Source of the DNA: an uncultured Candidatus Saccharibacteria bacterium
GTDB lineage: Bacteria; Patescibacteriota; Minisyncoccia; Phycocordibacterales; UBA9973
DNA length: 64,000 bases
Direction: 5' to 3'
NCBI GenBank assembly: GCA_964634365.1
Contig: CAZWJU010000002.1
Coordinates: 32,069 to 96,068, forward strand
Both the position numbers and the translations under genes were made by a program. Within the stretch, counting starts at the first letter, position 1; each line of letters starts with the position of its first letter. This document shows, in pieces, positions 1 to 31,339 of this stretch. A model generated the notes under the pieces. It worked only from the letters and a program-made list of their open reading frames with translations. It was not told where the DNA came from and did not search any database.

Positions 1-1323
1 ATACAAACCAAAGAAAAAGAATACTTGCCATCTGATAACGCTATTATAATCAGTGTAGAAAGTGGAATGTCTAGTCAGTTTAGTAAAGATTTAGCGAAAG
101 CAGTAAAGAGTGGCATTGATAAAAAAATTATTAAAGGGCTAGCTCCAGTATTGGCTCCTCTTGGATACTTAAATACTAAACACGAAGTTCGTGGTGAAAA
201 TTACATAATCAAAGACCCTGAACGATTTGAACTTATTAAGAGAGCGTGGAATATGATGCTAACTGGAGAATATACAATTCCTAAACTTCTAAAAATAATG
301 AATGATGATTGGGGTATGCGTACACGAACCACACGACATCGTGGAGGTGGAAAAATAAATAAAAGTACTATGTATAATATCTTAACCAATATATTTTATA
401 CTGGTCTTTTTATCTACAATGGAGAAGTTGGGAATGGTAAACACGAACCAATGATCACAATGGATGAGTTTGATATTGTTCAAAAGATGTTAGGGAGATA
501 TGGGAAACCAAGAGCCAAGAGTCATATATTTACGTACACTGGCACAATGATATGTGGTGAATGCGGTAGCTCTGTTACAGCTTGTACAAAGACGAAACTA
601 GTAAAAACTAAAAATGAATTAAAGGACTATACATTTTACTATTGTTCACACCGAAAGAAAGGAACAGAAAATTGCTCTCAAAGAGCTTTCATTCCATTGA
701 AAAATATGGAAGATATGATAAAGGAAGAAATAGACAAGTATACGATTTCAGAAAAGTTTAGAGATTGGGCATTAAGAATACTTGCAGAAGAACACTCTGA
801 TGAAGTTCGAGAGAGGGAGCTAATTTATAAAACACAATTAGGTGATATTGAGGCATCTCAAAGAGAGTTAGATAATTTAATAACAATGCGTATGCGTGAT
901 CTCATAAATGATGAACAATACGGTTCAAGGAAAAACGAGTTAACCGAGAAAATTGCAATCTTAAAGCAGAAAATCAATGAAACTGAAAGCCGAGCATTGA
1001 ACTGGTTACAATATACCGAACAAGTATTCAACTTTGCACAAGTAGCAAAAACCAAGTTTGAAGACCCTGAAACTACGATAGAAGATAAGAAAAGTATATT
1101 TACTGCACTTGGTTGGAACTATATAGTAAAAGACCAAAAACTCTTTATTTTACCGAATGATTGGCTAGAGCCAATAGATAAGAAGCGAAAAGCTGTAGAA
1201 AGTGAAATAAATCGGTTGGAACTGGAAAAAACCTTTGCTATAAAAGGACAAAACACCCGTTTAGGGGTGCTTTGTCCAATACTGCGCGACCGACCGGACT
1301 TGAACCGGCAACCTCCCGCGTGA
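1..1323 (+). CDS. Large serine recombinase (integrase-type), 5'-truncated at window edge; recombinase domain, zinc beta-ribbon and coiled-coil present
   Basis: Frame 1 is open from nt 1; the ORF track begins at TTG 25. It has a CX2C...YYCSH...C zinc-ribbon (CGECGSS...YYCSHRKKGTENC) followed by a long heptad-rich coiled-coil, as in C-terminal halves of large serine recombinases. The catalytic Ser domain would lie upstream of the window. The last ~13 codons overlap tRNA-Asp. Confidence 0.7.
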   Translation: MQTKEKEYLPSDNAIIISVESGMSSQFSKDLAKAVKSGIDKKIIKGLAPVLAPLGYLNTKHEVRGENYIIKDPERFELIKRAWNMMLTGEYTIPKLLKIMNDDWGMRTRTTRHRGGGKINKSTMYNILTNIFYTGLFIYNGEVGNGKHEPMITMDEFDIVQKMLGRYGKPRAKSHIFTYTGTMICGECGSSVTACTKTKLVKTKNELKDYTFYYCSHRKKGTENCSQRAFIPLKNMEDMIKEEIDKYTISEKFRDWALRILAEEHSDEVRERELIYKTQLGDIEASQRELDNLITMRMRDLINDEQYGSRKNELTEKIAILKQKINETESRALNWLQYTEQVFNFAQVAKTKFEDPETTIEDKKSIFTALGWNYIVKDQKLFILPNDWLEPIDKKRKAVESEINRLELEKTFAIKGQNTRLGVLCPILRDRPDLNRQPPA

Positions 1324-1358
1324 CAGGCGGGTGCTCTAACCAGTTGAGCTACGATCGC
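1285..1358 (-). tRNA. tRNA-Asp (anticodon GUC)
   Basis: Reverse complement folds as a cloverleaf: acceptor GCGATCG/CGGTCGC (one G-U pair), D-arm AGCTCAACTGGTTAGAGC, anticodon stem CCCGC/GCGGG with loop CTGTCAC, T-arm GCCGGTTCAAGTCCGGT, discriminator G; CCA not encoded. Confidence 0.85.
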
Positions 1359-1393
1359 ATATTATTTTCCGAACACAAATACAAATGTCCGTG

Positions 1394-1466
1394 TGTCGGA
1401 GGTGGGGATCGAACCCACGACCCCAGGCTTATGAGTCCTGTGCTCTACCGACTGAGCTACCCCGAC
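1394..1466 (-). tRNA. tRNA with CAU anticodon (Met elongator, or Ile2 if lysidinylated)
   Basis: Reverse complement: GTCGGGG-TA-GCTCAGTCGGTAGAGC...loop CTCATAA...GTGGGTTCGATCCCCAC-CTCCGAC-A. The anticodon stem has one A-G mismatch at 31-39. Confidence 0.7.
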
Positions 1467-1495
1467 AAAAAGCAAACTTCTTTGCTTTTTGTCGG
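1462..1495. repeat. Perfect 15-bp inverted repeat (CCGACAAAAAGCAAA cttc TTTGCTTTTTGTCGG) overlapping the 5' end of tRNA-CAT
   Basis: Read directly; palindromic hairpin whose left arm begins inside the tRNA acceptor stem. Confidence 0.6.
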
Positions 1496-1608
1496 TGGGT
1501 ATACCACCTGGTAAAGCAGTGCGATGTTGTGAGGCTTTTGCCGAACCATCGCTATCAAACAAGCTTGCCATTATTCGACATAGAGACATTGTGTCGCTTG
1601 CCGAAGTG

Positions 1609-1680
1609 TTGCGGGGGGACGATTCGAACGTCCGTCTTCAGGTTATGAGCCTGATGAGATAACCACTTCTCTACCCCGCT
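1609..1680 (-). tRNA. Second tRNA with CAU anticodon (initiator-like or Ile2/Met; A1-A72 mismatch or 6-bp acceptor)
   Basis: Reverse complement: (A)GCGGGG-TA-GAGA AGTGGTTA TCTC A TCAGG CTCATAA CCTGA AGAC GGACG TTCGAAT CGTCC CCCCGC A. The anticodon stem is perfect, the T-arm is canonical, and pairing at 1-72 is unusual. Confidence 0.65.
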
Positions 1681-7679: not shown

Positions 7680-8279
7680 TTACAGAGCGCCGGTGCCGGT
7701 ACCATCTCCTTCAGCACCTCCTTCTGGTGGAGGAACCTCGCCTCCACCCGCATCACCTCCTCCGTCTACTGCAACAGCCACTGGGTTTGGATATTTTACT
7801 TCGAGCAATCTTTCGACAATGCGATTTGTATCGAAAGAATCAAGCTGTGCACAATCTATATTGTAACCCTGAGATATTATACGTGTGTAGCTAGTACCGT
7901 CTATATCAAAATTTTTATTTACCTCAACAGTCGCACAACTACGAGGAGACAGATCAAATTCAAATGTAAACAAGGTTGGAGAAATATCTTCAAAATTAGC
8001 GACCATACCATCTCTACACTCTGGGACTATTGGAGAAACTGGATTGAAAGCATTTTGTTTTAAATCATAATACAAAGCACATTCACTACCAGCGTCTGCT
8101 GCATAAAAAGCTAAGTTAGATTCTTTTGCTGAAACAGTAAGCTCGGTTTCTTTTAAGGCTATATTGAATATACCTGTTGCAAGCACTAGTACGATAACAG
8201 ATATCAAAACTGTAAAAAGCACAACAAAACCATCTTGCTTGCTACCTGTCTTTTTTATTTGTTCGATAAATATTTTCAT
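7680..8279 (-). CDS. Pilus minor component, PilX-like (N-terminal hydrophobic helix, Gly/Pro/Glu-rich C-terminus)
   Basis: N-terminal QDGFVVLFTVLISVIVLVLATG resembles a pilin-like helix without canonical Glu5; last gene of the pseudopilin block. Confidence 0.45.
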   Translation of the reverse strand: MKIFIEQIKKTGSKQDGFVVLFTVLISVIVLVLATGIFNIALKETELTVSAKESNLAFYAADAGSECALYYDLKQNAFNPVSPIVPECRDGMVANFEDISPTLFTFEFDLSPRSCATVEVNKNFDIDGTSYTRIISQGYNIDCAQLDSFDTNRIVERLLEVKYPNPVAVAVDGGGDAGGGEVPPPEGGAEGDGTGTGAL

Positions 8280-8282
8280 ATT

Positions 8283-8894
8283 TTATATTGCACTTACATG
8301 TGGCTGCCAATCCATCAAAATATTTTGATAAGTAATAGTCTGCTCTGACAAACCTTCGTACCAAGTTACTTTACTAGTAACCAAAACATCGTCTGCTAAA
8401 GTTTCATTAATCGGCAAAACAAATATTGTTCTAGTAAAAGGTGAGGCTACTGATCCACTAGGAAGATCACATGCATCACTCTGGTCGTATCCAAAATATC
8501 CAGAAGTCTCTGAGTACGGAATATTGCAAGTAGACCCAGTACATGCGCATACATCTAAAGTAGACGGGTCTATGTTGCAACCAGCTGTCCCACTACAAGT
8601 ATTAATATTTGATAAGAAAATATCCCATCCGGCACCAGAAGGGTCGGATATAACTGAAGTATCTCTAATATTACGAACTGTCTCTACACCCTCTTGGGCT
8701 AGATACGAAGCTGTAAGTCTAGACTTTGCTAGAGTTGTGTTTGATACACCACCACTTGCGACAACTATCAGAAAAACAATCGATGAAGAAAATATAGCCA
8801 AGGCCACAAGAGTTTCTACTATTGTAAAACCAGAATTTTTACTTGCTATTTTATTTATTTTAAAAAGTTTGTTTTGCATATATTTAAAAATCAA
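8283..8894 (-). CDS. Type IV pseudopilin (prepilin-type N-terminal cleavage/methylation domain)
   Basis: SGFTIVETLVALAIF class III signal (G/FTxxE). Confidence 0.7.
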   Translation of the reverse strand: MIFKYMQNKLFKINKIASKNSGFTIVETLVALAIFSSSIVFLIVVASGGVSNTTLAKSRLTASYLAQEGVETVRNIRDTSVISDPSGAGWDIFLSNINTCSGTAGCNIDPSTLDVCACTGSTCNIPYSETSGYFGYDQSDACDLPSGSVASPFTRTIFVLPINETLADDVLVTSKVTWYEGLSEQTITYQNILMDWQPHVSAI

Positions 8895-9543
8895 TTTGTC
8901 TTTGGGATATAGTAGTCTGAACAGAAAAAGGAGTAGATATATCTTGATAAACTATATCTCCTGCCAATCTAATAGTAACTTTCGGCTGCACACCATCGCC
9001 TAGCATAGGATTTGGATTTTCAGCATTCTCAATATTGAACCCAGATTTATTTGGATCTAAATGCACAGAGTATGGGGTCAAATCTAAACACCCACTACCT
9101 GTAGGCGATGTAGCACAAGTAATACCAGCACCTTTTACAAGCTTGTAAATTCCAGTACCTGAGATTTCTACAATTCTGTACACAACCTGGTCTCCATCGT
9201 CAGAAATATTACCGTTAACTTTTTCGAAAGCCATAGACTGATATGGTGTTATACCCTCTTCAAAAGGACAATCCTCTGCCTCACCCAATCCACCAATAGA
9301 TGCTCTACAGTTATATAAACTTCCTAGGCGAATATTTCTAGACATGTCTTCTAAAACAAAGTGCATACTATCTATCGCCTGTCTAGAATCTGATGTCTTT
9401 TTATGAATTTGATTTACTCTCAAAACCGCTCCGATACCTATTATCATCACAACAGTAAAAAGCCCGACCGCTATAACAATCTCTATAACTGTAAAACCAG
9501 ATTTTTTGTTTTTATGATTTTTGTATTTCATATTGTTTAACAA
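8884..9543 (-). CDS. Type IV pseudopilin
   Basis: KKSGFTVIEIVIAVGLF prepilin motif. Confidence 0.7.
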   Translation of the reverse strand: MLNNMKYKNHKNKKSGFTVIEIVIAVGLFTVVMIIGIGAVLRVNQIHKKTSDSRQAIDSMHFVLEDMSRNIRLGSLYNCRASIGGLGEAEDCPFEEGITPYQSMAFEKVNGNISDDGDQVVYRIVEISGTGIYKLVKGAGITCATSPTGSGCLDLTPYSVHLDPNKSGFNIENAENPNPMLGDGVQPKVTIRLAGDIVYQDISTPFSVQTTISQRQIDF

Positions 9544-10184
9544 GCAAAACCACCTCCATCACAAGCATCAACTGGTCCGTCAGATACACTGATCTGGCCA
9601 GTAGGCCATATGGAAATATTCATATTGGCACCTTTTGGAGAAACTATTTCTATTTTTGCACCCGATGATAATTCATATAAAGTATCAAATTTTGTGCCGT
9701 ATATTTTAGGTTCTGGAAAAGGTCTGACATAGGTAACAGACAAATCTTCGTACCCACAAGAACCATCATGAGTACAGATATCAGATATCGCATCACCTGA
9801 TTGAATTGTTGTTGTAGACAGACATTCAATACCAAGCTCCCCTGGTGTGTCGCAATCACCATCAAAAAGAAAATTTCTAGGAGAACCTAAGTCTCTAAAA
9901 TAAATAAACGACTCTGGTGTATCCATATCAAAATAAATTCCGTATGAAGGTGGCTGACCACTATCTAAACCTCCAGTAAGTCTTCCAGATATAGCGTTTG
10001 TCTGAGCTTTTTTAATATGCAAAGCTATGTCTTGAGATAGATTTTGAAGTGAAGCTTTTGTAGAAAAATCTGAAAAGTTAAAAAGTGTGACACTAGATAT
10101 AATACCAACTATAGACAAAACCACTATGAGCTCTATAAAAGTCATCCCCTTTTTGTATTTATAATTTTCTTTAAAAATTTTCAT
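9537..10184 (-). CDS. Type IV pseudopilin (Cys-rich C-terminus)
   Basis: KGMTFIELIVVLSIVGI prepilin motif. Confidence 0.7.
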   Translation of the reverse strand: MKIFKENYKYKKGMTFIELIVVLSIVGIISSVTLFNFSDFSTKASLQNLSQDIALHIKKAQTNAISGRLTGGLDSGQPPSYGIYFDMDTPESFIYFRDLGSPRNFLFDGDCDTPGELGIECLSTTTIQSGDAISDICTHDGSCGYEDLSVTYVRPFPEPKIYGTKFDTLYELSSGAKIEIVSPKGANMNISIWPTGQISVSDGPVDACDGGGFAC

Positions 10185-10991
10185 TTAGAAAAATAAACTA
10201 CTTAAAAATCTAGAGAGTGATTCGAAAGATGTTCCGAAAATATATACAAACAATGTTCCAAATACTAAAAACGGACCAAAAGGAATCTCACTTTTCATAG
10301 TATATCTAGAATGCCTAGCTATTAGAAGTATTATAGAAACGATTGCACCCACCCAAAAAGAAATCATGAGAGCCGCAATCCCGTGAGATAGACCGAGGAA
10401 AAATCCCATACCCATCATGAGCTTTAGATCGCCAAAACCCATCAGTCTACCTTTTGATAAAAGCCAGAGTATATAAAAAGGTAGTGGTATGAGTATCCCT
10501 GCAAAAGCATCTATAGGATCTGGGGTAATAATCCCATAAGCATTTGAAAACATTCCCAAGAAACTAACCAAAATAAAAGTGTAGACTAAGGCGTTTGGAA
10601 TAATCTTGTGACGAATGTCGTATACAGCTATCACTATAAGCAATGAAGCCATAAACATAGAATATATAAGTGGAGCAACAGTAACGAAAGAAACTGTTTC
10701 AGAAGATAAGAACTTATTGGCTAGAAATACAAAGATAAAAGCTGTAGATATTTCAACAAGTGGGTATTGGATAGAGATTTTTGATTTACAAACTGAACAC
10801 TTACCACGTAAAAATATGTAACTGAAAATCGGAAAAAGTTCATACCAATGAAGAGTCTTGCCACAAGACAGACACATGGATCTACCACCTAGTCCCCAAC
10901 CAGTCTGGTAACGGTATATAACAACATTCAAGAAACTTCCGATAAAGAGTCCTAGGATAAATATTATAAATATTGGTAAAAAAGTATTCAT
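10185..10991 (-). CDS. pilD: Prepilin peptidase (A24 family)
   Basis: N-terminal CxxC...CxxC zinc tetracysteine, multi-TM, conserved Asp-containing GFGDLKL block. Confidence 0.85.
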   Translation of the reverse strand: MNTFLPIFIIFILGLFIGSFLNVVIYRYQTGWGLGGRSMCLSCGKTLHWYELFPIFSYIFLRGKCSVCKSKISIQYPLVEISTAFIFVFLANKFLSSETVSFVTVAPLIYSMFMASLLIVIAVYDIRHKIIPNALVYTFILVSFLGMFSNAYGIITPDPIDAFAGILIPLPFYILWLLSKGRLMGFGDLKLMMGMGFFLGLSHGIAALMISFWVGAIVSIILLIARHSRYTMKSEIPFGPFLVFGTLFVYIFGTSFESLSRFLSSLFF

Positions 10992-10998
10992 TTATATT

Positions 10999-11511
10999 TT
11001 ATGGTACTAGGTCGTAACATTTTCCACCAGCAGGCTCTATAGCAGTACCCTTGCAAGACTGTGTATCATCGCCACGAATAGAGTCGGAATTTAAGCCGTT
11101 TAGGTTATCACATAGGTTTAGACCAGTCCCTATTAAACCTGTATTTGTAGATGTAAGGTCACGATCAGTTTGCAATACGTTATTATTTTTTTCTAAAGAA
11201 GTACCAATATGATATGAAGAACATTGACCACCAGACCCACCCAAGCCTATGTAATATACTCCAGTTGGAAGTGAGGGTATGTATGTTGGAGAGAGAGTTG
11301 CTGCTGTCTGAGGATAGTAACCATTTGCGCTGAAATATAAATTCAACGCATTGACCACAGATTTTAATTCTGTAATTTTTTTTGTATCGCGACCACCGGC
11401 ACGTGCTGATGAAACCGAAGCGAATATTACAGAAGCTATAATTCCGATTATAGCAATAACGATAAGGAGTTCCAAAAGAGTAAAACCTTTAAAGTTTTTA
11501 TATTTTTTCAT
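10999..11511 (-). CDS. Type IV pilin
   Basis: KGFTLLELLIVIAIIGIIA class III signal; 170 aa. Confidence 0.75.
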   Translation of the reverse strand: MKKYKNFKGFTLLELLIVIAIIGIIASVIFASVSSARAGGRDTKKITELKSVVNALNLYFSANGYYPQTAATLSPTYIPSLPTGVYYIGLGGSGGQCSSYHIGTSLEKNNNVLQTDRDLTSTNTGLIGTGLNLCDNLNGLNSDSIRGDDTQSCKGTAIEPAGGKCYDLVP

Positions 11512-11632: not shown

Positions 11633-12088
11633 TTAAGAACAAGTAGTTCCAGATGCTGCCAAGAAGTTACTAGTAACTATAGCCGCACCAGTGTTATCTA
11701 CACAGAAAGACACACCTGTGTTAAGAGGAACCTGAGCTGCCCAACCTGTTGATGAGTCGTGGCATACTGGAACAGTCGCAGTTGCTACAGTTGCATCAGC
11801 TGCTGTAAATGTTGAAGTAGAACCATTCTTAGCTTTCCATGCTGCAAGTACACTGTCTCCAATAACGTTTGTTCCTGTCGCTGCACAAACCAGATCGTAT
11901 GTTCCTGCTGTATCATAGAATAATTCTGCCTCTGCACGAGCATTAGACAAGTTTGCCTTAACAGCAGCATCTGCACCCTTTGTACGTGCTGTGTTAAGTG
12001 AAGCCAAAACTACTGAAGCTAGGATACCGATGATTGCGATAACAACCAAGAGTTCTATAAGTGTGAAACCTTTGTTTTTTTGTGACAT
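11633..12088 (-). CDS. Type IV pilin, probable major pilin (PilA-like)
   Basis: KGFTLIELLVVIAIIGILASV signal; 151 aa; followed by a very strong terminator, consistent with high expression. Confidence 0.75.
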   Translation of the reverse strand: MSQKNKGFTLIELLVVIAIIGILASVVLASLNTARTKGADAAVKANLSNARAEAELFYDTAGTYDLVCAATGTNVIGDSVLAAWKAKNGSTSTFTAADATVATATVPVCHDSSTGWAAQVPLNTGVSFCVDNTGAAIVTSNFLAASGTTCS

Positions 12089-12283
12089 ATAAAATAAAAC
12101 TTTTTTTAAAATTTGTCGCTTTCATTAACCGATTGCGACGCGACCTATTTATAATACCTAAAGTATACCACGAAAGCGTTTTTACTAAGTAAACCCCCTA
12201 GGTGTGGATAAATAAGTGTTATTTGTGGCCTTATTTTATTATAAAATTAAAGATATTTTCTTTAACAAAAAAATAACGAAAAA

Positions 12284-15193
12284 ATGAAAAAGATTACTCT
12301 AACATTTTTACTGATACTTTTGATAGTATCTGCATGCCTATCACAAACAGTGGTAGATGGATTTCAATATATTCTAGGCGACAAAGGTATCGACAGTATT
12401 ACAAATACAGAATACCAAGTTGCAGAACAAATTAATCCAGCAACATACACCGTCGTTGGCTATGCTGATATTGAGATTAATGAAATGTATCCATATTTCA
12501 TAAGCTCAACACCAAACAGAGGGTCGGTGACTATATCAGACAGACATAACGACAGTGATGATGGCGACTGGTCCCCTGGTGGAATACATCCGGGGGAAGA
12601 TTGGAACTATGGAAGTGTGGGTGAAGATATTGGAATGCCTATATACGCTACAGCAAATGGAGTTATACACGATTTTCGAATGCTGTCATATCCAATCAAT
12701 AAGTCTGGGTGGTGCATGGTAATAAAACACTTCATGCCCGATGGTTCATATGTGTATAGTTTTTATATGCATATAACAAATATCGCAAATACCGACGGCG
12801 CAATATGTCTAAATGAAAGTGATTTTGGTTTTTCTATAGGCGAAGAAGTAACAAGAGGTCAAATGATTGCACGAATAGGAAATGTAACTAGTTTTGGTAG
12901 TCATTGCCATTTTGAAATCAGAAGCTTGTATGACCAAGAGTTGGACCTGTGGCCAAATGGACCAGGTGGGCGTTATCCTGAATATTCCAATTCATACAAA
13001 TATGCAATTGATATAGAAAATGTAGCTCTTGCTTACTATGAAATGCAATTAGATGGAATTTTAGATGCATCAGATTTTATTGACACACATAGACCGAGTG
13101 AATTTATTGAAACTGAACCAGTCTGTATAGACCCAGAGATTGAATGGCAAAATACTATTGGAGGAATAAGCAATGATGAACTGTATGTGGTAAAAAAAGT
13201 TTCTAATGGCTACATATTGGGAGGTAATTCTAATTCTGATATATCTATAGACAAAATAGAAATATCAAATGGCGGGATTGATTACTGGATAATAAAGACA
13301 GATGATACGGGTATGATTCAATGGCAGAATACTATTGGAGGAAGTGGCGATGATAGATTATGTTATATTAGCCAGACTACAGATAATGGTTATATATTAG
13401 GAGGATGCTCAAATTCTGGTATTTCAGGAGATAAAAATGAATCATCTTATGGTGCACAAGATTTATGGATAGTAAAAATAGACTCTATCGGGAATATACA
13501 GTGGCAGAATACTATTGGAGGAAGTGGCGATGATATATTGTCGTCTATAAAACAAACCGTAGACGGAGGTTATATACTAGGAAGTTATTCAAATTCTAAT
13601 ATATCAGGAGATAAAGCTGAAGCTAGTTTGGGCGGGATTGATTACTGGATACTTAAATTAGATTTTTCAGGTAATGTACAGTGGCAGAATACTATTGGAG
13701 GAAGTGATGGAGATTACTTGTACGATATTATTCAAACATCCGATAATCAGTATTTACTTGGTGGCTATTCAAATTCTAGTATTTCGGTAGATAAAACTGA
13801 AGCAACCAATGGCAATAATGATTATTGGATAATCAAGATAGATGATTTTGGTGATATACAATGGCAAAATACTATTGGAGGAAGTGGCGATGATATATTA
13901 TTTTCAATACAAGAAATACCAAGTAGCGGTTATTTAATAGGTGGTAAATCTGGATCTAATATTTCAGGAGATAAAAGTGAAAATAGTCTAGGATACCTTG
14001 ATTACTGGATACTTAAATTAGATTTTTCAGGTAATGTACAGTGGCAGAATACTATTGGAGGAAATTTAGACGACAATTTAACAAGTATTTCAAAAACTGG
14101 CGATAATGGAGTGCTCATTTCTGGCTACTCAAATTCTGGTATTTCAGGAGATAAAAATGAAGCTCTAATTGGAATATATGATGGGTGGATAGTAAAAATA
14201 GACTCTATCGGGAATATACAGTGGCAGAATACTATTGGAGGAACCGGATATGATTTTTTATATTGCACTCAAGAAATATCCAGTGGTGAATATATTCTGG
14301 GATTCACTTCAGGATCTACTATTTCCGGAGATAAAGATGAAGATAATCTGGGAAACTATGATTATTGGGTAATTAAATTATTTGGTACCTGTAACCCATC
14401 CACTGAAATTTGCAATACTTTCGATGACGATTGTGATGGACTTATCGACGAAGACCTGGAACCATCTATATCAATCGAAGCATTGGGGTCTACAACCTTC
14501 TGCCAAGGAAGTAGTGTCGTGCTTACAGCAACCCATACCGGAACATCAGTACAGTGGTATAAAAATGGATCAATAATTTCTGGCGCAACTTACGATTTTA
14601 TAACCGTATCTGCGACCGGAAACTATACATGCATAAGCTCCAATGAATGTGCAAGTACAACTTCAAACTCTGTAATTGTAAACGTAAATAAAAATCCATC
14701 TGCAAATATAACAGCGGGCGGTCCAACTAGTTTCTGTTTTGGAGGAAGTGTCACACTTACAGCAAACACTGGGGCTTCACTATCCTACCAATGGTACAAA
14801 GGTGCAACAGCCATCGCTGGAGCAACTAGTATAAATTACGTAGCTACAACTTCTGGAAACTACAAATGTAGAGTAACCAAAACTGCCACAGGGTGTTACA
14901 AGAATTCAAATACTATAACAGTATCTGTAACCTGCCGAGAAGGTGTATCGATAGATCAAATACTTAGCCCAAATCCAGCGAGCAATATCTTGTATGTGGA
15001 TTTGATGGATTTTGAAAGTGACGCTTTGGATATATACATGATCAACAATATAGGTCAAAAAGTCCTTGCCAAAAAAACCGAAGGAGGACACCTGATTGAT
15101 CTTGATATATCTTCCCTGCCAAAAGGGCTGTACTCATTTTTCATAATGAAAGAAGGTTTTATTATTTACTCAGAAAAATTTATCGTCGAGTAG
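12284..15193 (+). CDS. Secreted multidomain protein: signal peptide, M23 (LytM-type) metallopeptidase domain, seven tandem ~60-aa SBBP beta-propeller repeats, CxxxDDDCDG motif, three Ig-like repeats and a T9SS-type C-terminal sorting domain
   Basis: M23 motifs HPGED and GSHCHFE (HxxxD and HxH). Seven repeats of ..IQWQNTIGGSGDD...YILGG.SNS.ISGDK.E...G..DYWI.K.D. FC.GGSVTLTA...YQWYKNG...GNYTC repeats. C-terminus SPNPASNILYVDL...IYMINNIGQKV...IDLDISSLPKGLYSF matches the Por-secretion CTD pattern. Confidence 0.65.
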   Translation: MKKITLTFLLILLIVSACLSQTVVDGFQYILGDKGIDSITNTEYQVAEQINPATYTVVGYADIEINEMYPYFISSTPNRGSVTISDRHNDSDDGDWSPGGIHPGEDWNYGSVGEDIGMPIYATANGVIHDFRMLSYPINKSGWCMVIKHFMPDGSYVYSFYMHITNIANTDGAICLNESDFGFSIGEEVTRGQMIARIGNVTSFGSHCHFEIRSLYDQELDLWPNGPGGRYPEYSNSYKYAIDIENVALAYYEMQLDGILDASDFIDTHRPSEFIETEPVCIDPEIEWQNTIGGISNDELYVVKKVSNGYILGGNSNSDISIDKIEISNGGIDYWIIKTDDTGMIQWQNTIGGSGDDRLCYISQTTDNGYILGGCSNSGISGDKNESSYGAQDLWIVKIDSIGNIQWQNTIGGSGDDILSSIKQTVDGGYILGSYSNSNISGDKAEASLGGIDYWILKLDFSGNVQWQNTIGGSDGDYLYDIIQTSDNQYLLGGYSNSSISVDKTEATNGNNDYWIIKIDDFGDIQWQNTIGGSGDDILFSIQEIPSSGYLIGGKSGSNISGDKSENSLGYLDYWILKLDFSGNVQWQNTIGGNLDDNLTSISKTGDNGVLISGYSNSGISGDKNEALIGIYDGWIVKIDSIGNIQWQNTIGGTGYDFLYCTQEISSGEYILGFTSGSTISGDKDEDNLGNYDYWVIKLFGTCNPSTEICNTFDDDCDGLIDEDLEPSISIEALGSTTFCQGSSVVLTATHTGTSVQWYKNGSIISGATYDFITVSATGNYTCISSNECASTTSNSVIVNVNKNPSANITAGGPTSFCFGGSVTLTANTGASLSYQWYKGATAIAGATSINYVATTSGNYKCRVTKTATGCYKNSNTITVSVTCREGVSIDQILSPNPASNILYVDLMDFESDALDIYMINNIGQKVLAKKTEGGHLIDLDISSLPKGLYSFFIMKEGFIIYSEKFIVE
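13138..14400 (+). repeat. Seven tandem 180-bp intragenic repeats (propeller blades) with stretches of 57-66 nt of perfect nucleotide identity between non-adjacent units
   Basis: 13638-13704 is identical to 13998-14064, and 13467-13524 is identical to 14187-14244; read directly. Confidence 0.8.
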
Positions 15194-15202
15194 ATATAAA
15201 CT

Positions 15203-15230
15203 AAAAACTCTGCAAATTTGCAGAGTTTTT
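15203..15230 (+). terminator. Intrinsic terminator (AAAACTCTGCAAA TTTGCAGAGTTTT)
   Basis: Perfect palindrome plus T-run after the 969-aa gene. Confidence 0.65.
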
Positions 15231-15274: not shown

Positions 15275-15853
15275 ATGAAAAACCAAAAGAACTTACTTGT
15301 GTCAATCTTAGTTATTTTACTTGTTTTTGTTTGTATATATTTACTCATAAAAGATACACACAAAGACAGCACTGTCGTTTCAAATGATTCTGAAATACAG
15401 ACAGATTACTACGCAGGTCCTTTTAGTTGCACTGCTGGAGGATACAATCAAACAGGAGAAGGTATACTCGATACTTATACTGTAAAATCAGGAGATTCTC
15501 TTCTCTCTATATCTAAAAACATATACGGAGATTCTTCTCGTATTTCAGACTTAGTTTTTCTGAACAAGCATACTTACAACTCACTTTCTACAGACTCTCC
15601 ATTTATTGAAATCGGATGGACTCTCTTACTGCCAGAAAAAGATATCAGAATCGACAGCAGAGGAATGACCGTAAGTAGTGGTCAGGTAATAAAATTAGAT
15701 ACCGATCAAATCATAATAAAAACAAGCGATTATTCAGCTTCATACCACTTCTACTCAGATCATACCTCCCTTTCACTACCAGATATAAAACCAGGTGATT
15801 GTATACATGTCTACAATTCTGGCTCTCATATATATAAAATAGAAATGCAATAA
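15275..15853 (+). CDS. Membrane-anchored LysM domain protein
   Basis: N-terminal TM helix; LysM-like block YTVKSGDSLLSISKNIYGDSSRISDLVFLN. Confidence 0.55.
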   Translation: MKNQKNLLVSILVILLVFVCIYLLIKDTHKDSTVVSNDSEIQTDYYAGPFSCTAGGYNQTGEGILDTYTVKSGDSLLSISKNIYGDSSRISDLVFLNKHTYNSLSTDSPFIEIGWTLLLPEKDIRIDSRGMTVSSGQVIKLDTDQIIIKTSDYSASYHFYSDHTSLSLPDIKPGDCIHVYNSGSHIYKIEMQ

Positions 15854-15857
15854 AATT

Positions 15858-15889
15858 AAAAACATTCTAGATAAATCTAGAATGTTTTT
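15858..15889. terminator. Bidirectional terminator (AAAAACATTCTAGAT aaa TCTAGAATGTTTTT)
   Basis: Perfect hairpin between convergent genes. Confidence 0.65.
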
Positions 15890-15903
15890 AATTAATTTAT
15901 CTT

Positions 15904-17106
15904 TTACTGTATCCCCCCTGCGATGTTGTAGATAGGCACAAGTACTGATGCGAGAAGCACACCGACGCCGAGACCCAGTGCCACGATCATGATAGGTTCG
16001 ATAAGTGAGACGAGTGTATCCACTGCATCATCAACTTCACGCTTGTAGAACTTTGCAAGAGTTTTCAGAATTGATCCTAAAGATCCAGTCTCCTCACCCA
16101 CCTTCACCATCTGCACCAAAATCGGTGGGATTGGTTCATGTTTTGCAAATGCATCAGATAGTGATGACCCACCTTTTACATCTTCTTCGGCCTTTTTTAA
16201 AATATCAGAGTAAACACGATTTCCTACAACATCCCCTGTGATTTCTATAGAACGCACGATTGATATACCAGAGGAAAGCATTGTATCTAAGTTGTCAGCA
16301 ATACGAGCAAGGTAAAGTTTCTTGAAAAGTTTACCTATGATTGGAAAAGAGATTTTTAGCCCATCTAAATATTGCTTGCCAGAATCAGTTCTAGAAAGAT
16401 GCCAAACATATACTCCTGCTATGACAAAAAATATCAATATAAACAATCCATAGTTTACAAAGAAATCACTTGCTCCGATCACCGCTTTTGTATAAAGAGG
16501 TATATCCTGACCACTCTCAGTAATAATAGAAGAAAGCTTCGGTATAACTATAGTAAACATGAGCCCCATCACAACAAAGAAAGTAAATATAACAAAAGCT
16601 GGATATATAAGAGCGTTGCGAGTTTTTGATGTAAGAGAGTAGTTTCGATCTAGATAGTCAGCTAGAAAATTAAATGTATCATTTAGTTTTCCAGATTCTT
16701 CTCCTGCTTTTACCATGTTTACATAGAAAGTTGAAAACACATCTGGGTGCTTCGCCAGAGCTCCTGAAATCGAGTACCCTGCCTGCAGGTCGTCCACTAT
16801 TTGGTTTAGATTTCTTGAAAGCAATGGGTTCTCTACGTTTGAAGCAAGAAGTGAAAAAGCTTTCAGTGCAGATACTTGGGCTTCGAAAAGAGTCGCAATT
16901 TGTCGTGAAAGTATAACCACGTCTTTTGCTGGAACATGTTCGAACACTGACATCTGCAAAAGACTTTTATCTTCCTCGCCTTTTATAGACACAACTATAA
17001 AACCACGACGCTGAAGTGCCGCGATAGCCAAGTCTTTTGTTTGAGCATCGATTGAACCTTCTTTTTGCTCGCCTGTATTTGAAACAACTTTGTATTTGAA
17101 AGTCAT
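15904..17106 (-). CDS. pilC: Type IV pilus inner-membrane platform protein (GspF family)
   Basis: 400 aa, two GspF-type repeats, 3 TM segments. Confidence 0.85.
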   Translation of the reverse strand: MTFKYKVVSNTGEQKEGSIDAQTKDLAIAALQRRGFIVVSIKGEEDKSLLQMSVFEHVPAKDVVILSRQIATLFEAQVSALKAFSLLASNVENPLLSRNLNQIVDDLQAGYSISGALAKHPDVFSTFYVNMVKAGEESGKLNDTFNFLADYLDRNYSLTSKTRNALIYPAFVIFTFFVVMGLMFTIVIPKLSSIITESGQDIPLYTKAVIGASDFFVNYGLFILIFFVIAGVYVWHLSRTDSGKQYLDGLKISFPIIGKLFKKLYLARIADNLDTMLSSGISIVRSIEITGDVVGNRVYSDILKKAEEDVKGGSSLSDAFAKHEPIPPILVQMVKVGEETGSLGSILKTLAKFYKREVDDAVDTLVSLIEPIMIVALGLGVGVLLASVLVPIYNIAGGIQ

Positions 17107-20379: not shown

Positions 20380-21000
20380 CTAATTACTTGTACCTAGAGT
20401 CTTCCAAGATACAACTGAACCGTAGACAGTCTGTCCATTGATTTTAGCGGCAGCTTTATAGAAATATGTTGTATTCGCAGTAAGACCAGAAATTGTAGCA
20501 GTATAAGGACTTGTACTGCCTAGCAATTTTGTTGTACTAGCACCAAGAGATTCTGTTAGACCCCATTCAAACCATCTCTCAGTAGCTACAGTTCCAGCAA
20601 GCAAAGCTCCTTGGAGAACTGTGCTAGAAGTAGATATAGACGTAGGTGTGTTTGTTATGACACTAGGACTTGAGACAACACTTGTAGGAGACAGGTCTGA
20701 GCCTATAGGAGCAAAAGGATTCGGACGACCTTGATTGCCAAGCTGAACAAGAGTTATAGAAAAATCTTGTAGACCTGTGAACGTATTTGCATTGAAAATA
20801 TCTCCATCGAGTTTTAGCACTTGAAGGTTCAATAGAGTAGCTAGAAACTCGTCACCCACTTCGTTTGTAGAGTCTGTATTTGCGCCGACAGTAGATAGAG
20901 TTTGATCACCTTGTTTTTTATTTGATACTAGAGAATAACCGATTGCGATTAGTGCAACCACCACTGCTACTGTTATTAGACGTTTAATAATCTTACTCAT
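20380..21000 (-). CDS. Membrane-anchored pilus-operon protein with FN3/Ig-like C-terminal domain (occupies the PilP position)
   Basis: Single N-terminal TM helix, GRPNPFAP motif, beta-rich C-terminus ending ...YFYKAAAKINGQTVYGSVVSWKT. Confidence 0.35.
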   Translation of the reverse strand: MSKIIKRLITVAVVVALIAIGYSLVSNKKQGDQTLSTVGANTDSTNEVGDEFLATLLNLQVLKLDGDIFNANTFTGLQDFSITLVQLGNQGRPNPFAPIGSDLSPTSVVSSPSVITNTPTSISTSSTVLQGALLAGTVATERWFEWGLTESLGASTTKLLGSTSPYTATISGLTANTTYFYKAAAKINGQTVYGSVVSWKTLGTSN

Positions 21001-22365: not shown

Positions 22366-23511
22366 CTATGCAGATTCTTGTAAGCGACGCAGAGCAAGTC
22401 CTGCTGCAACAGCAAACTCAGGTCCAGCAGTCTCAAGTACATTGTCTAAAAATGCAGGTGCTTCTACTTTATCAAAAGGCTTAGCCATCACAACCTCTGA
22501 TCTCAATTGTTCTGTTGCTCTCTCTTTGAAACCTTTCAACAAAACTCCCCCGCCAGTTAGTATCACCTTGCTTATAGTTTTACCGTATTGTCTTTCGTAA
22601 TTTAAAATAGCGCTATTTGTTTCACTCAATATATAGTCTACAGACAGAGAAATAATTTCTGGCATACTCTGATCTTTTTGATTGCCAAACATTCCAAACT
22701 CTCTTTTCATTTGCTCTGCTTGCAAAAAAGTTACACCCAAAGATTTAGACAGTGCATTTGTTATGTCTTGACTTCCTCTGTCTATACTGTGGAACTTTCT
22801 TACAATCCCGTACTCTATGATAGATAATTTGGTTTTTAGTGCACCCATATCGATTATGAGAACAGTTGAAAGCTCTCTACCAAAACTACTTCGTATACTA
22901 GAAAAAAGTTCGATTTCAAAAAAATCTACTGATAGATTTGTCTTTGCGATTATATCTCTATATTTTTGTATAGTGTCATTGTGAATAGCAGCGACCAAGA
23001 CTTCTGTTTTTGGAGACTCTTTTATAGGCTTACCGTCTGGTCCAACAGCTCCATCTAACGCAGAATCTTTTTTAGGAATCGGCCACCAATCAAGTGAAAC
23101 TTCAGATATTGGAACTGGAATATATTTTCTAGCTTCAGTCGGTATAATAGAAGCTAACTGACTTTCATCTATAACTGCAGGTAGTTCAATCAAAAAAACT
23201 AAACTAGAAGAAGCAGGTATAGAAACTGCACCCTGTTTTGTAGTTATACCAGCCTCGCGCATAACATCTGTAAGTGCCTGGGCAACTTTCTCTATAGGTA
23301 GGTTTGTTGTCTGTCCCACTACGCCACCTTCTAAGTATGGACCGAGCGAAAGAGCGCCGTATGTCTCCAGTACTGCCTTTGCGCCTTTTTTCTTTAGCTG
23401 GACAACCTTGATAGCCGATGATCCAATATCAATACCAACAACACTGTCAGTAGAGCTCTTTTTGAAGACTGCTAGGCTATCGCTTAATATCTTTGAAAAT
23501 GGGTTTGCCAT
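22366..23511 (-). CDS. pilM: Type IV pilus assembly ATPase-fold protein PilM (actin-like)
   Basis: 382 aa from ATG 23511 (MANPFSKIL...GIDIGSSAIKVVQL). The ORF-track extension to 23847 overlaps comFC and is not coding. Confidence 0.8.
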   Translation of the reverse strand: MANPFSKILSDSLAVFKKSSTDSVVGIDIGSSAIKVVQLKKKGAKAVLETYGALSLGPYLEGGVVGQTTNLPIEKVAQALTDVMREAGITTKQGAVSIPASSSLVFLIELPAVIDESQLASIIPTEARKYIPVPISEVSLDWWPIPKKDSALDGAVGPDGKPIKESPKTEVLVAAIHNDTIQKYRDIIAKTNLSVDFFEIELFSSIRSSFGRELSTVLIIDMGALKTKLSIIEYGIVRKFHSIDRGSQDITNALSKSLGVTFLQAEQMKREFGMFGNQKDQSMPEIISLSVDYILSETNSAILNYERQYGKTISKVILTGGGVLLKGFKERATEQLRSEVVMAKPFDKVEAPAFLDNVLETAGPEFAVAAGLALRRLQESA

Positions 23512-23557
23512 ATATAAAATTAGTGTCTGTATTATATCATATATACATATTTTAGTT

Positions 23558-24208
23558 ATGAATATACTATCATCGATACTTGAATACGTATTCCCCACCA
23601 AATGCATAGGGTGTAAAAACATAGGCGACATATTGTGCGAGCAGTGCCTACAAAAAATCCCCGAGCCTAAACATCCTGTAGATAGTTTTATACACGCATG
23701 TTTTTCATATAAAAACGGAACAGTGAAGTACGCACTCTGGCTTCTAAAATACCACGGCAAGTTTCCTATTGCGAAGATATTTGGCAATACACTGTATGAA
23801 TACAATATAGACATATTAAGTGAAAAAAATATGTTCGACTCTGGCAAGGAAACTTTAGTTGTACCTATACCAATTACAAAAAATCGTAAACGTGTGCGCG
23901 GATATAATCAATCAGCTCTACTCGCAAGAGCTTTTGTAGAAAATCTTGGAGAAAAAGAATTCAAATATGGAGGAGATATCATAGAAAAAATTCGTGACAC
24001 AATCGCTCAGGCAAAAATTCGCAACCGTACAGAAAGATTGAAAAACTTGCAGGGTGCTTACAAGATTAAATCTAATGCAATTGTAAAAGGAAAAAATATA
24101 ATTTTAATCGACGATGTTTCAACTACCGGAGCAACATTAAAAGAAGCTCGCAGAGTTCTGCGTGAAGCTGGTGCAAGGAACGTAATCGCACTGGTCGTAG
24201 CGCATTAG
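23558..24208 (+). CDS. comFC: ComF-family phosphoribosyltransferase (competence protein ComFC)
   Basis: 216 aa from ATG 23558; N-terminal CxxC...CxxC zinc finger and PRTase motif ILIDDVSTTGAT. Divergent from pilM with a 46-bp intergenic region. Confidence 0.75.
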   Translation: MNILSSILEYVFPTKCIGCKNIGDILCEQCLQKIPEPKHPVDSFIHACFSYKNGTVKYALWLLKYHGKFPIAKIFGNTLYEYNIDILSEKNMFDSGKETLVVPIPITKNRKRVRGYNQSALLARAFVENLGEKEFKYGGDIIEKIRDTIAQAKIRNRTERLKNLQGAYKIKSNAIVKGKNIILIDDVSTTGATLKEARRVLREAGARNVIALVVAH

Positions 24209-24362: not shown

Positions 24363-24449
24363 GGAGGATTGGGTGAGTGGTTGAAACCAGCAGTTTACTA
24401 AACTGCCGACCTGTAAAAAGGTCCGTGAGTTCGAATCTCACATCCTCCG
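24363..24449 (+). tRNA. Type II Ser-like tRNA with unusual anticodon loop TTACTAA (apparent anticodon ACU)
   Basis: GGAGGAT acceptor, 3-bp D-stem, anticodon stem GCAGT/ACTGC, long variable arm, T-arm identical to tRNA-Ser(GCU), discriminator G. Confidence 0.6.
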
Positions 24450-24453
24450 CAAA
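24432..24453 (+). repeat. att-like direct repeat copy 1 (tRNA 3' end, cgaatctcacatcctccgcaaa)
   Basis: 22-nt sequence repeated exactly at 24573-24594 and with one deletion at 26275-26293. An inverted 11-mer TGCGGAGGATG lies at 24473-24483. Confidence 0.7.
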
Positions 24454-30313: not shown

Positions 30314-31204
30314 TTATTTAGAAACACTGTCGCTGTGAGACACTATTTCTTCAGCAACTTTCGGCAGATACTTGGTTATCATCTTGTAGTAAAGATCGAA
30401 ACTCTCTACCTGAAAGTACTCAATCTGGAGTTTCGTAATATCATACTCTGTATACATCGCTTGGCGAATAAAATTCTTCATCGCAAGCGGACTATCTCCA
30501 CACGAGTGTATCGTAGGCTTCGAACTTGTCGCTGCATAAAGCGTTTCGCCAACCGAAGAAAGGATACCCGGGCCAGCAATACGACGATCACCATGACCAC
30601 GAACAAGTATGAATTCCACCAAAAACCAAAATGCGGGTGGAAGCAACTTCATAACTTCTGGTGAGAAATTATATCTCTTTGCGACAATACCAAACATCTG
30701 AAGACATTCTCCATATTTCTTGAGAGTGAGCATCGGTAGATGCCCAAAAACTTCATGAAACATGTCTGGAGCTGGTGTGTATTGCCAGTCCTTCAGACTA
30801 CGAAAAAAGTTTGTAACCGGAAACATCTTTTTCATGAGTCCGTAATACAAAATATCGTCATCGAGAGTTCCGTCGCAGATATATATCTGCCACCCGGTAA
30901 GTTTTTTTAGACGACGATTGATTTCTGAAAATACCGGGATCTTGTCCCCTGTAATACCAAGCTTCTTCAAACCTTTGAAGAAAGCTCTGTGTGCAATATA
31001 CTCCAACTGCCTAGTTTGATTCTCCCAAAGGAGCCTCCAGGTTTTTTGGTCATCTTCGGTGTATTTTTCGTACTGCTGAACCTCATCGAGATTTCGACGA
31101 GCAAGTTTATTGAAACGCGACTTAACGCTCTCTTCTAAGGCTTTTTTCATTGTGCTATTTTTCATCACTCTACACTGAAAAAGAGATAGTGGCAAGTGTG
31201 CCAA
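30314..31204 (-). CDS. phhA: Aromatic amino acid (phenylalanine-4-) hydroxylase-like, biopterin/iron dependent
   Basis: Iron-binding block PDMFHEVFGHLPML (H-x4-H) and downstream GPGILSSVGE (GAGLLSSxGE-like), characteristic of PAH/TyrOH catalytic domains. True start is probably an internal Met (MKNSTMKK.. or MKKALEES..). Confidence 0.6.
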   Translation of the reverse strand: MAHLPLSLFQCRVMKNSTMKKALEESVKSRFNKLARRNLDEVQQYEKYTEDDQKTWRLLWENQTRQLEYIAHRAFFKGLKKLGITGDKIPVFSEINRRLKKLTGWQIYICDGTLDDDILYYGLMKKMFPVTNFFRSLKDWQYTPAPDMFHEVFGHLPMLTLKKYGECLQMFGIVAKRYNFSPEVMKLLPPAFWFLVEFILVRGHGDRRIAGPGILSSVGETLYAATSSKPTIHSCGDSPLAMKNFIRQAMYTEYDITKLQIEYFQVESFDLYYKMITKYLPKVAEEIVSHSDSVSK

Positions 31205-31257: not shown

Positions 31258-31331
31258 CCACCCTTAGCTCAGTTGGTTAGAGCACAGAGCTTATACCTCT
31301 GGGGTCCTTGGTTCGAATCCAAGAGGGTGGA
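31258..31331 (+). tRNA. tRNA-Ile with UAU anticodon
   Basis: CCACCCT-TA-GCTC AGTTGGTTA GAGC A CAGAG CTTATAC CTCTG GGGTC CTTGG TTCGAAT CCAAG AGGGTGG A; perfect cloverleaf. Confidence 0.8.
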
Positions 31332-31339
31332 CATGACAG

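Follow-up and report, generated by a model that had tools for sequence, protein, structure and literature searches.

Within a 64-kb stretch of DNA from a tiny, uncultured and probably symbiotic bacterium of the Candidate Phyla Radiation (CPR, or Patescibacteria), contig CAZWJU010000002.1 (hereafter the window), a type IV pilus cluster contains a gene, which we call gene X, that encodes a 969-residue protein joining an M23 peptidase module to a seven-bladed β-propeller, two immunoglobulin (Ig)-like domains, and a type IX secretion system (T9SS) C-terminal sorting domain (CTD). M23-bearing homologs occupy the same slot of the pilus locus in a single clade, and their peptidase-encoding cassettes have been exchanged between closely similar genomes. 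Our reading, offered tentatively and with slightly less than even confidence, is that the gene X product is secreted, acts as both lysin and adhesin against the walls of foreign cells, and is possibly coupled to the pilus. CPR bacteria depend on other cells, and the molecules with which they act on host envelopes are poorly known, above all in uncultured Paceibacteria. With an intact wall-cutting enzyme and binding modules encoded in a pilus locus, gene X is a concrete candidate for a role in CPR-host interaction.

Gene X spans 12284..15193 on the plus strand, stop codon included, and starts with ATG; its coordinates and length are exactly those given in the first-pass annotation, which had been made from the sequence alone. 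An extended M23 (LytM-type) metallopeptidase module occupies residues 21-284 (12344..13135, plus strand) and carries a C-terminal helical extension with the motif DG(I/L)xDxSDFID. Residues 115-214 matched Peptidase_M23 (PF01551) at 33.8 bits, against a gathering score of 28.7. The motif HPGED runs from H102 to D106, and HCH contributes H207 and H209; the predicted zinc ligands are H102, D106, and H209, with H163 and H207 as the predicted catalytic residues. All five are invariant in eight full-length homologs (47-55% identical) and in a 34-sequence family alignment. HMMER alignments placed HPGED onto the HxGxD motif and HCH onto the HLH motif of zoocin A and LysTt72, so that these motifs coincide with LytM catalytic residues, as the first-pass annotation had proposed checking. 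AlphaFold2, run with 34 diverse family members, returned the M23 β-sheet fold, which places the domain in this family. The N-terminal domain is thus a true M23 fold with a complete metal-binding and catalytic set, as first suggested. Although fold matches also included the degenerate LytM domains of EnvC, SpoIIQ, and DipM, the gene X domain, unlike these, is predicted to be catalytically competent.

The closest solved relative of the N-domain is a phage lysin, LysTt72 (PDB 8s3m), the lytic M23 endopeptidase of Thermus phage vB_Tt72; identity to this enzyme and to the phiYS40/TMA peptidases is 22-26%. LysTt72 lacks the propeller, Ig domains, and CTD, and acts in phage lysis, whereas gene X lies in a pilus locus. 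The DGIxDPSDFID extension of gene X falls outside the sequence alignment to LysTt72, and its presence in that enzyme is unconfirmed. Compared with LytM, lysostaphin, and ShyA, the gene X module is larger (~260 residues), being extended by ~80 conserved residues at its N-terminal end and ~60 at its C-terminal end, and it is combined with a propeller and Ig domains, where enzymes of that type use SH3b or LysM as targeting modules. An exhaustive profile search with the module recovered 1526 representative clusters at E ≤ 1e-3, including 96 at E ≤ 1e-30. In the 96, the whole ~255-residue module occurs at N-terminal, internal, or C-terminal positions of proteins of up to 4530 residues, and SLH, LRR, TIG, fn3, and PQQ-propeller domains were found beside it. 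DG(I/L)xDxSDFID is near-invariant in the family alignment. Judged by its sequence, the gene X N-domain is a distinct extended M23 module (~255-260 residues) with conserved flanks, and the papers that we searched contain no description of an extended ~260-residue M23 module. It comes in two types, one with a YTVxGYxDIEIN insert and the other with a Cys-rich insert.

Residues 1-20 (12284..12343, plus strand; MKKITLTFLLILLIVSACLS, followed by Q) read as a Sec signal peptide, with an MKK n-region, a 13-residue hydrophobic core, and small residues ahead of S20-Q21. In the alignment of the eight full-length homologs, S20 and Q21 are invariant. Cleavage is predicted directly before Q21 or after VSA. 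As Cys18 is not conserved, we rejected a reading of VSAC as a lipobox and take the leader to be of the ordinary signal peptidase I type. The earlier description of the protein as secreted is in keeping with this canonical leader, which is retained in the homologs. An invariant Ser-Gln at the predicted cleavage site is common to many N-terminal instances of the extended M23 module; as a lead and no more, we note its likeness to the Bacteroidota 'Q-rule' for substrates of signal peptidase I. A protein identical to that encoded by gene X (P0001) is present in NCBI on a 231,850-bp contig.

The center of the protein is a predicted seven-bladed β-propeller of 7 x 60 residues (residues 285-705; 13136..14398, plus strand), recognized from its repeat count, from tandem repetition in the DNA, and from a match to CylK. 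WQNTIGG recurs at residues 288, 347, 407, 467, 527, 587, and 647, marking seven 60-residue repeats; the underlying DNA is a tandem repeat with a period of 180/360, and the region matched the CylK β-propeller in the PDB with an E value of 6e-21. The first-pass annotation had called this a complete seven-bladed SBBP propeller. All seven repeats are present, but the SBBP label is weakly supported, as Pfam SBBP gave no match at E ≤ 1 and the NCBIfam SBBP LipL53 lipoprotein model scored 54 bits against a cut-off of 400. The propeller is followed by a Cys/Asp-rich, MopE-like linker (CNTFDDDCDGLIDED; residues 706-724, 14399..14455, plus strand), for which PF11617 scored 17.9 bits, under its cut-off of 27. 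The CxxxDDDCDG motif that had been pointed out is found here as CNTFDDDCDG at residues 709-718; the MopE-like motif is absent from two homologs, P0026 and P0101. Two Ig-like repeats (residues 725-803 and 804-884; 14456..14935, plus strand), and not three as first counted, matched Ig_2 (43.6 bits) and the CHU_C-associated Ig_7 (38.0 bits), both above the curated cut-offs. Their pattern of Cys and Trp is conserved in the alignment.

The protein ends in a type A T9SS CTD (residues 890-969; 14951..15190, plus strand). Por_Secre_tail (PF18962) scored 31.7 bits against a cut-off of 27, and the isolated CTD scored 27.1 bits against 23 with TIGR04183. P896, N897, P898, G924, and Y950 are invariant, and the PNP and GxY motifs are conserved, as is KFIVE at the C terminus. 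The Bacteroidota style of this domain had been correctly noted, although the inference that the gene has a foreign, Bacteroidota-type origin had not been drawn. Custom CTD profiles picked out gene X and no other gene in the window, with the same outcome in every related CPR locus, and a Pfam scan of ten of the larger remaining open reading frames (ORFs) of the window revealed no T9SS components. A published survey found the T9SS only in Bacteroidetes (PMC4793230), and the literature that we searched held nothing specific on T9SS sorting domains in Patescibacteria. In the gene X organism, the CTD has probably lost its function as a T9SS signal and is presumably kept as a structural or binding β-sandwich. 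That a T9SS sorting domain is under constraint in a lineage without a reported T9SS prompts one to ask what it does there.

The propeller-MopE-Ig-CTD part of gene X is about 40-57% identical to many proteins of Chitinophagales, Adhaeribacter, and Pontibacter; for Chitinophagales and Adhaeribacter, the value is about 50%. T9SS cargo proteins of the Bacteroidota (Chitinophagales, Adhaeribacter) share both this domain order and the CTD motifs; they mostly lack M23 and occur as paralog arrays in genomes with TonB-dependent receptors, whereas gene X is a single-copy gene inside a pilus locus of a CPR genome. Homologs without M23 occur in Bacteroidota-type contexts. One locus (L012) contains six tandem CTD paralogs, and in another (L014) the CTD proteins adjoin a TonB-dependent receptor. 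In a rough tree of the C-terminal part, built without support values, most CPR sequences fell in two clades among Bacteroidota-type proteins, and P0026 and P0101 lay deeper, on long branches. A horizontal origin is indicated by the Bacteroidota likeness of the propeller-Ig-CTD part, by the status of gene X as the sole CTD gene, and by the reported confinement of the T9SS to Bacteroidetes. We favor a transfer from Bacteroidota-type genomes into the CPR clade, a direction that we infer. Should the architecture have a Bacteroidota source, it may hint at who the ecological partners of gene X carriers are.

One further homolog, P0021 (1539 residues; locus L013, 8001-12620), has the same propeller and CTD behind a wall hydrolase domain of SpoIID type instead of an M23 domain, which suggests that wall-hydrolase 'warheads' are interchangeable on a propeller-CTD scaffold. 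The P0021 gene adjoins integrase and transposase genes.

Gene X itself is a mosaic. Between the window and the closest genome (L005/L011), PilC is 93%, PilT 94%, PilB 90%, and PilD 86% identical, while the gene X proteins share 49% of their amino acids; at the DNA level, the flanks are 71-83% similar, but this similarity breaks down within 12304-14216. Loci L001 and L007 are 84-86% identical in DNA over ~20 kb, the exception being ~1170 nt at the start of gene X (L001 10012-11182 versus L007 7543-8749), an unalignable stretch that corresponds to the M23 domain plus ~1.8 blades. Similar breaks are seen in the proteins: P0057 has an N-domain 91% identical to that of P0044 and a propeller and C-terminal part 82-83% identical to those of P0019, and P0019 and P0068 have N-domains that are 40% identical and C-terminal parts that are 84% identical. 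The M23 cassette has therefore been swapped between genomes whose flanks are 84-86% identical. Adhesins, receptor-binding proteins, and polymorphic toxins typically vary in this way, by exchange of cassettes while the locus around them is conserved. Gene X evolves in the manner of host-range determinants, and this mode of evolution fits an interaction protein that faces other cells.

In all 11 distinct loci found to carry an M23-bearing homolog, gene X lies in the slot between pilC and the major pilin genes. The carriers (P0019, P0101, P0026, P0044, P0068, P0018, P0032, P0057, P0005, the L011 locus, and the window) were drawn from NCBI, JGI, ENA, and Logan, and the recurrence of one gene-in-locus arrangement in 11 independent assemblies ruled out chimeric assembly or contamination. 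In the window, two major-pilin-type genes (10999-11511 and 11633-12088, both minus strand; N_methyl 40.0 and 35.8 bits) flank gene X on one side, and pilC, encoding the T2SSF platform protein (15904-17106, minus strand), flanks it on the other, which is the placement originally described. Most loci have gene X on the strand opposite the pilus genes; in L004, L008, and L097 it shares their strand. No CPR copy outside a pilus locus was found. Pilus linkage of homologs, which the first-pass annotation had proposed checking, is conserved among those that bear M23, although the option of a single insertion weakens what position can tell.

Gene X is nevertheless not part of the pilus machinery. A metagenome scan with PilC recovered 80 related loci (PilC identity 55-74%), and in none of these did profiles for the N-domain, propeller, Ig domains, and CTD detect a gene resembling X next to pilC. 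Where gene X-less loci included enough downstream sequence, pilC was usually followed directly by one or more pilins, pilD, minor pilins, and ligA. In a neighbor-joining tree of PilC, all carriers fell in one clade, which also holds two loci without gene X (L015 and L016). Because it is missing from the 80 related loci and from two loci of the carrier clade, gene X is an accessory insertion confined to one clade. The most economical history is that it entered, a single time, a locus that was compact in the ancestor and rigid in its synteny, and was occasionally lost afterwards.

Within the long minus-strand pilus cluster of the window, gene X is one of only two plus-strand genes. On the pilin side lie four minor pilins (7680-10184, minus strand) and the prepilin peptidase gene pilD (10185-10991, minus strand); beyond pilC are pilT, a receiver-domain (REC) gene, pilB, and pilO, pilN, and pilM, to ~23847. 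A 195-bp divergent intergenic region (12089..12283) separates the minus-strand major pilin gene from plus-strand gene X, and the promoters of both would have to sit there. A sigma-70 consensus scan found no strong site and fewer consensus sites than in shuffled controls. Ten nucleotides past the gene X stop codon, a symmetric, GC-poor hairpin between an A-run and a T-run (15203..15230) is likely the intrinsic terminator of gene X, which would then be monocistronic.

The first-pass annotation had also drawn attention to an adjoining LysM protein. This gene is present (15275-15853, plus strand; 192 residues, membrane-anchored; LysM 24.0 bits against a cut-off of 20.9) and has its own hairpin (15854-15893). 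However, tblastn found no match to it in any related locus, and the pairing is absent from every other locus examined. We therefore discarded the idea of a conserved partnership with gene X, as the LysM protein is a window-specific insertion in a variable slot. In other loci, the position next to the pilins is taken by a DKNYY protein, a GIY-YIG gene, or an extra pilin.

Two other genes of the pilus cluster deserve mention. The pilM ORF (22366-23847, minus strand) encodes 493 residues from a TTG start, and its homologs have 364-381; the true start is probably ~115-130 codons downstream of the TTG. In the gap between pilO and pilB, a 206-residue gene (20380-21000, minus strand) has a weak fn3-like (Pur_ac_phosph_N) match at its C terminus. 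It is found at full length only in the closest genome (78%) and in part elsewhere, and is a variable component of the pilus locus.

A model that brings these observations together is that a sub-clade of Paceibacteria took up a Bacteroidota T9SS cargo architecture a single time, in the interval from pilC to the major pilin genes, and that the gene then diversified as whole domain cassettes were exchanged. The protein would be exported by Sec, and its mature form would stay at or close to the cell surface. There, the propeller, the two Ig-like domains, and the β-sandwich CTD could bind the cell surface or space the peptidase from it, and the M23 zinc endopeptidase would cut peptide cross-links of peptidoglycan in a foreign wall. 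The type IV pilus would bring the cells together, the target wall being that of a host, prey, or competitor. We invoke the pilus as the source of cell contact because type IV pili drive host attachment in Saccharibacteria (PMC9894109, PMC12206443). This model is close to the earlier proposal of a pilus-associated, wall-degrading surface adhesin. The signal peptide, the intact M23 domain, and the pilC-pilin slot speak for that proposal, but position is weaker evidence than it may seem and the LysM neighbor is not conserved.

Several points weigh against a pilus-coupled lysin-adhesin. Given rigid synteny and a single carrier clade, position alone is weak evidence of coupling, and the conserved slot may reflect one ancestral insertion. 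The variety of unrelated genes next to the pilins has the look of a recombination hotspot. The CTD motifs are kept even though no T9SS is expected in a CPR lineage, and the absence of T9SS genes refers to the 64 kb of genome inspected. The trees of PilC and of the C-terminal part were built by neighbor joining without bootstrap.

These points lend some weight to the view that gene X is a passenger in a hotspot, a Bacteroidota-type surface hydrolase with a bacteriolytic or nutrient-scavenging role that works independently of the pilus and whose position is historical. We consider this unlikely, though far from negligible. Single insertion with inheritance within one PilC clade would explain the position, two members of that clade lack the gene, and the slot accommodates unrelated genes (LysM; DKNYY, GIY-YIG, and an extra pilin); moreover, gene X has its own terminator and is mostly transcribed opposite to the pilus genes. 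A mere passenger is harder to reconcile with retention in 11 of 11 carriers despite inversions, N-domain swaps, and divergence of PilB to 60% amino acid identity, with an intergenic region shared divergently with the major pilin gene, and with the failure to find CPR copies outside the pilus locus. By contrast, we regard it as very improbable that the enzyme opens the cell's own peptidoglycan for the pilus, as a space-making endopeptidase comparable to Neisseria Mpg (NGO1686) or to the lytic enzymes of other trans-envelope machines; local remodeling for pilus passage had been put forward as an alternative in the first-pass annotation. An intact M23 domain encoded within a pilus cluster would suit such a role, and full type IV piliation in Neisseria requires an M23B peptidase, which in N. 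gonorrhoeae is Mpg (PMC3735123, PMC11980366). Mpg is thus an M23 enzyme with a functional link to type IV pili, but it is a small periplasmic housekeeping enzyme encoded outside the pilus locus, whereas the gene X protein is large, modular, and hypervariable, and related pilus loci do without it. The 80 related loci with pilMNO-pilB-pilT-pilC-pilin-pilD, together with the two carrier-clade loci, have the machinery and lack gene X, and a history of single insertion disfavors a housekeeping role. Neither the propeller, Ig domains, and CTD nor the swap of a catalytic cassette between near-identical genomes would be expected of such an enzyme.

Display on the pilus itself is a further option, in which the propeller docks on minor pilins and the peptidase is presented at the pilus tip, as in a PilY1-like adhesin. 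We think this improbable, although it is compatible with the lysin-adhesin reading. Like PilY1/PilC, gene X encodes a large (~1000 residues) protein with a Sec signal peptide and a variable N-domain ahead of a seven-bladed propeller, in a pilus locus beside pilin genes, and the locus contains no PilY1 homolog. However, homology is not detectable (no match to the PilY1/PilC Pfam family at E ≤ 1), the domain order differs in that the gene X propeller is central rather than C-terminal, Ig domains and a CTD are added, and most related pilus loci lack gene X yet have four minor pilins. A more elaborate version, quite improbable in our estimation, is that gene X is a host-range cassette. The protein would be displayed in PilY1-like fashion on or beside the pilus of an episymbiotic Paceibacterium, the swappable M23 'warhead' would breach the partner's wall, and the Bacteroidota-derived modules would recognize the partner; Bacteroidota might be both host and donor, with the retained T9SS tag serving as a mimic to dock on T9SS surface components of the host. 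If this were so, exchange of N-domain cassettes between lineages would retarget the symbiont to new hosts.

Each module of gene X is known, and modular M23 lysins are common. What is new is the combination in a CPR genome, the fixed slot in a pilus locus together with cassette swapping, and the constrained, orphan T9SS tag. Our literature searches on the gene X combination, on LysTt72/8S3M, and on links between M23 peptidases and pili in CPR returned nothing specific.

The window is a core chromosomal region of a CPR/Patescibacteria genome, as judged from its flanking genes (gatCA, ligA, comF, recG, and those for FtsH, SecY, EF-Tu, ribosomal protein L2, and tmRNA) and from homologous loci, which come from metagenome-assembled genomes of Candidatus Paceibacterota and Candidatus Nomurabacteria. 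Its GC content is ~37%. At one end, a serine-recombinase-like ORF (25-1323, plus strand) with Recombinase and Zn_ribbon_recom domains abuts a tRNA-Asp/Met/Met cluster (1284-1680, minus strand), and its called 3′ end overlaps tRNA-Asp; this junction may be the edge of an integrated element. Anticodons that are unusual in bacteria were called by ARAGORN for a tRNA-Ser (ACT; 24363-24450) and a tRNA-Ile (TAT; 31258-31332). A 909-residue protein (42276-45005, minus strand) has weak matches to TrwB/VirD4 coupling proteins and HerA-type ATPases and may belong to a monoderm-type type IV secretion system, as reported in Patescibacteria (PMC12102498). Finally, 30314-31204 (minus strand) encodes a homolog of biopterin-dependent aromatic amino-acid hydroxylases (109.7 bits), an enzyme that is unexpected in a metabolically reduced CPR genome.

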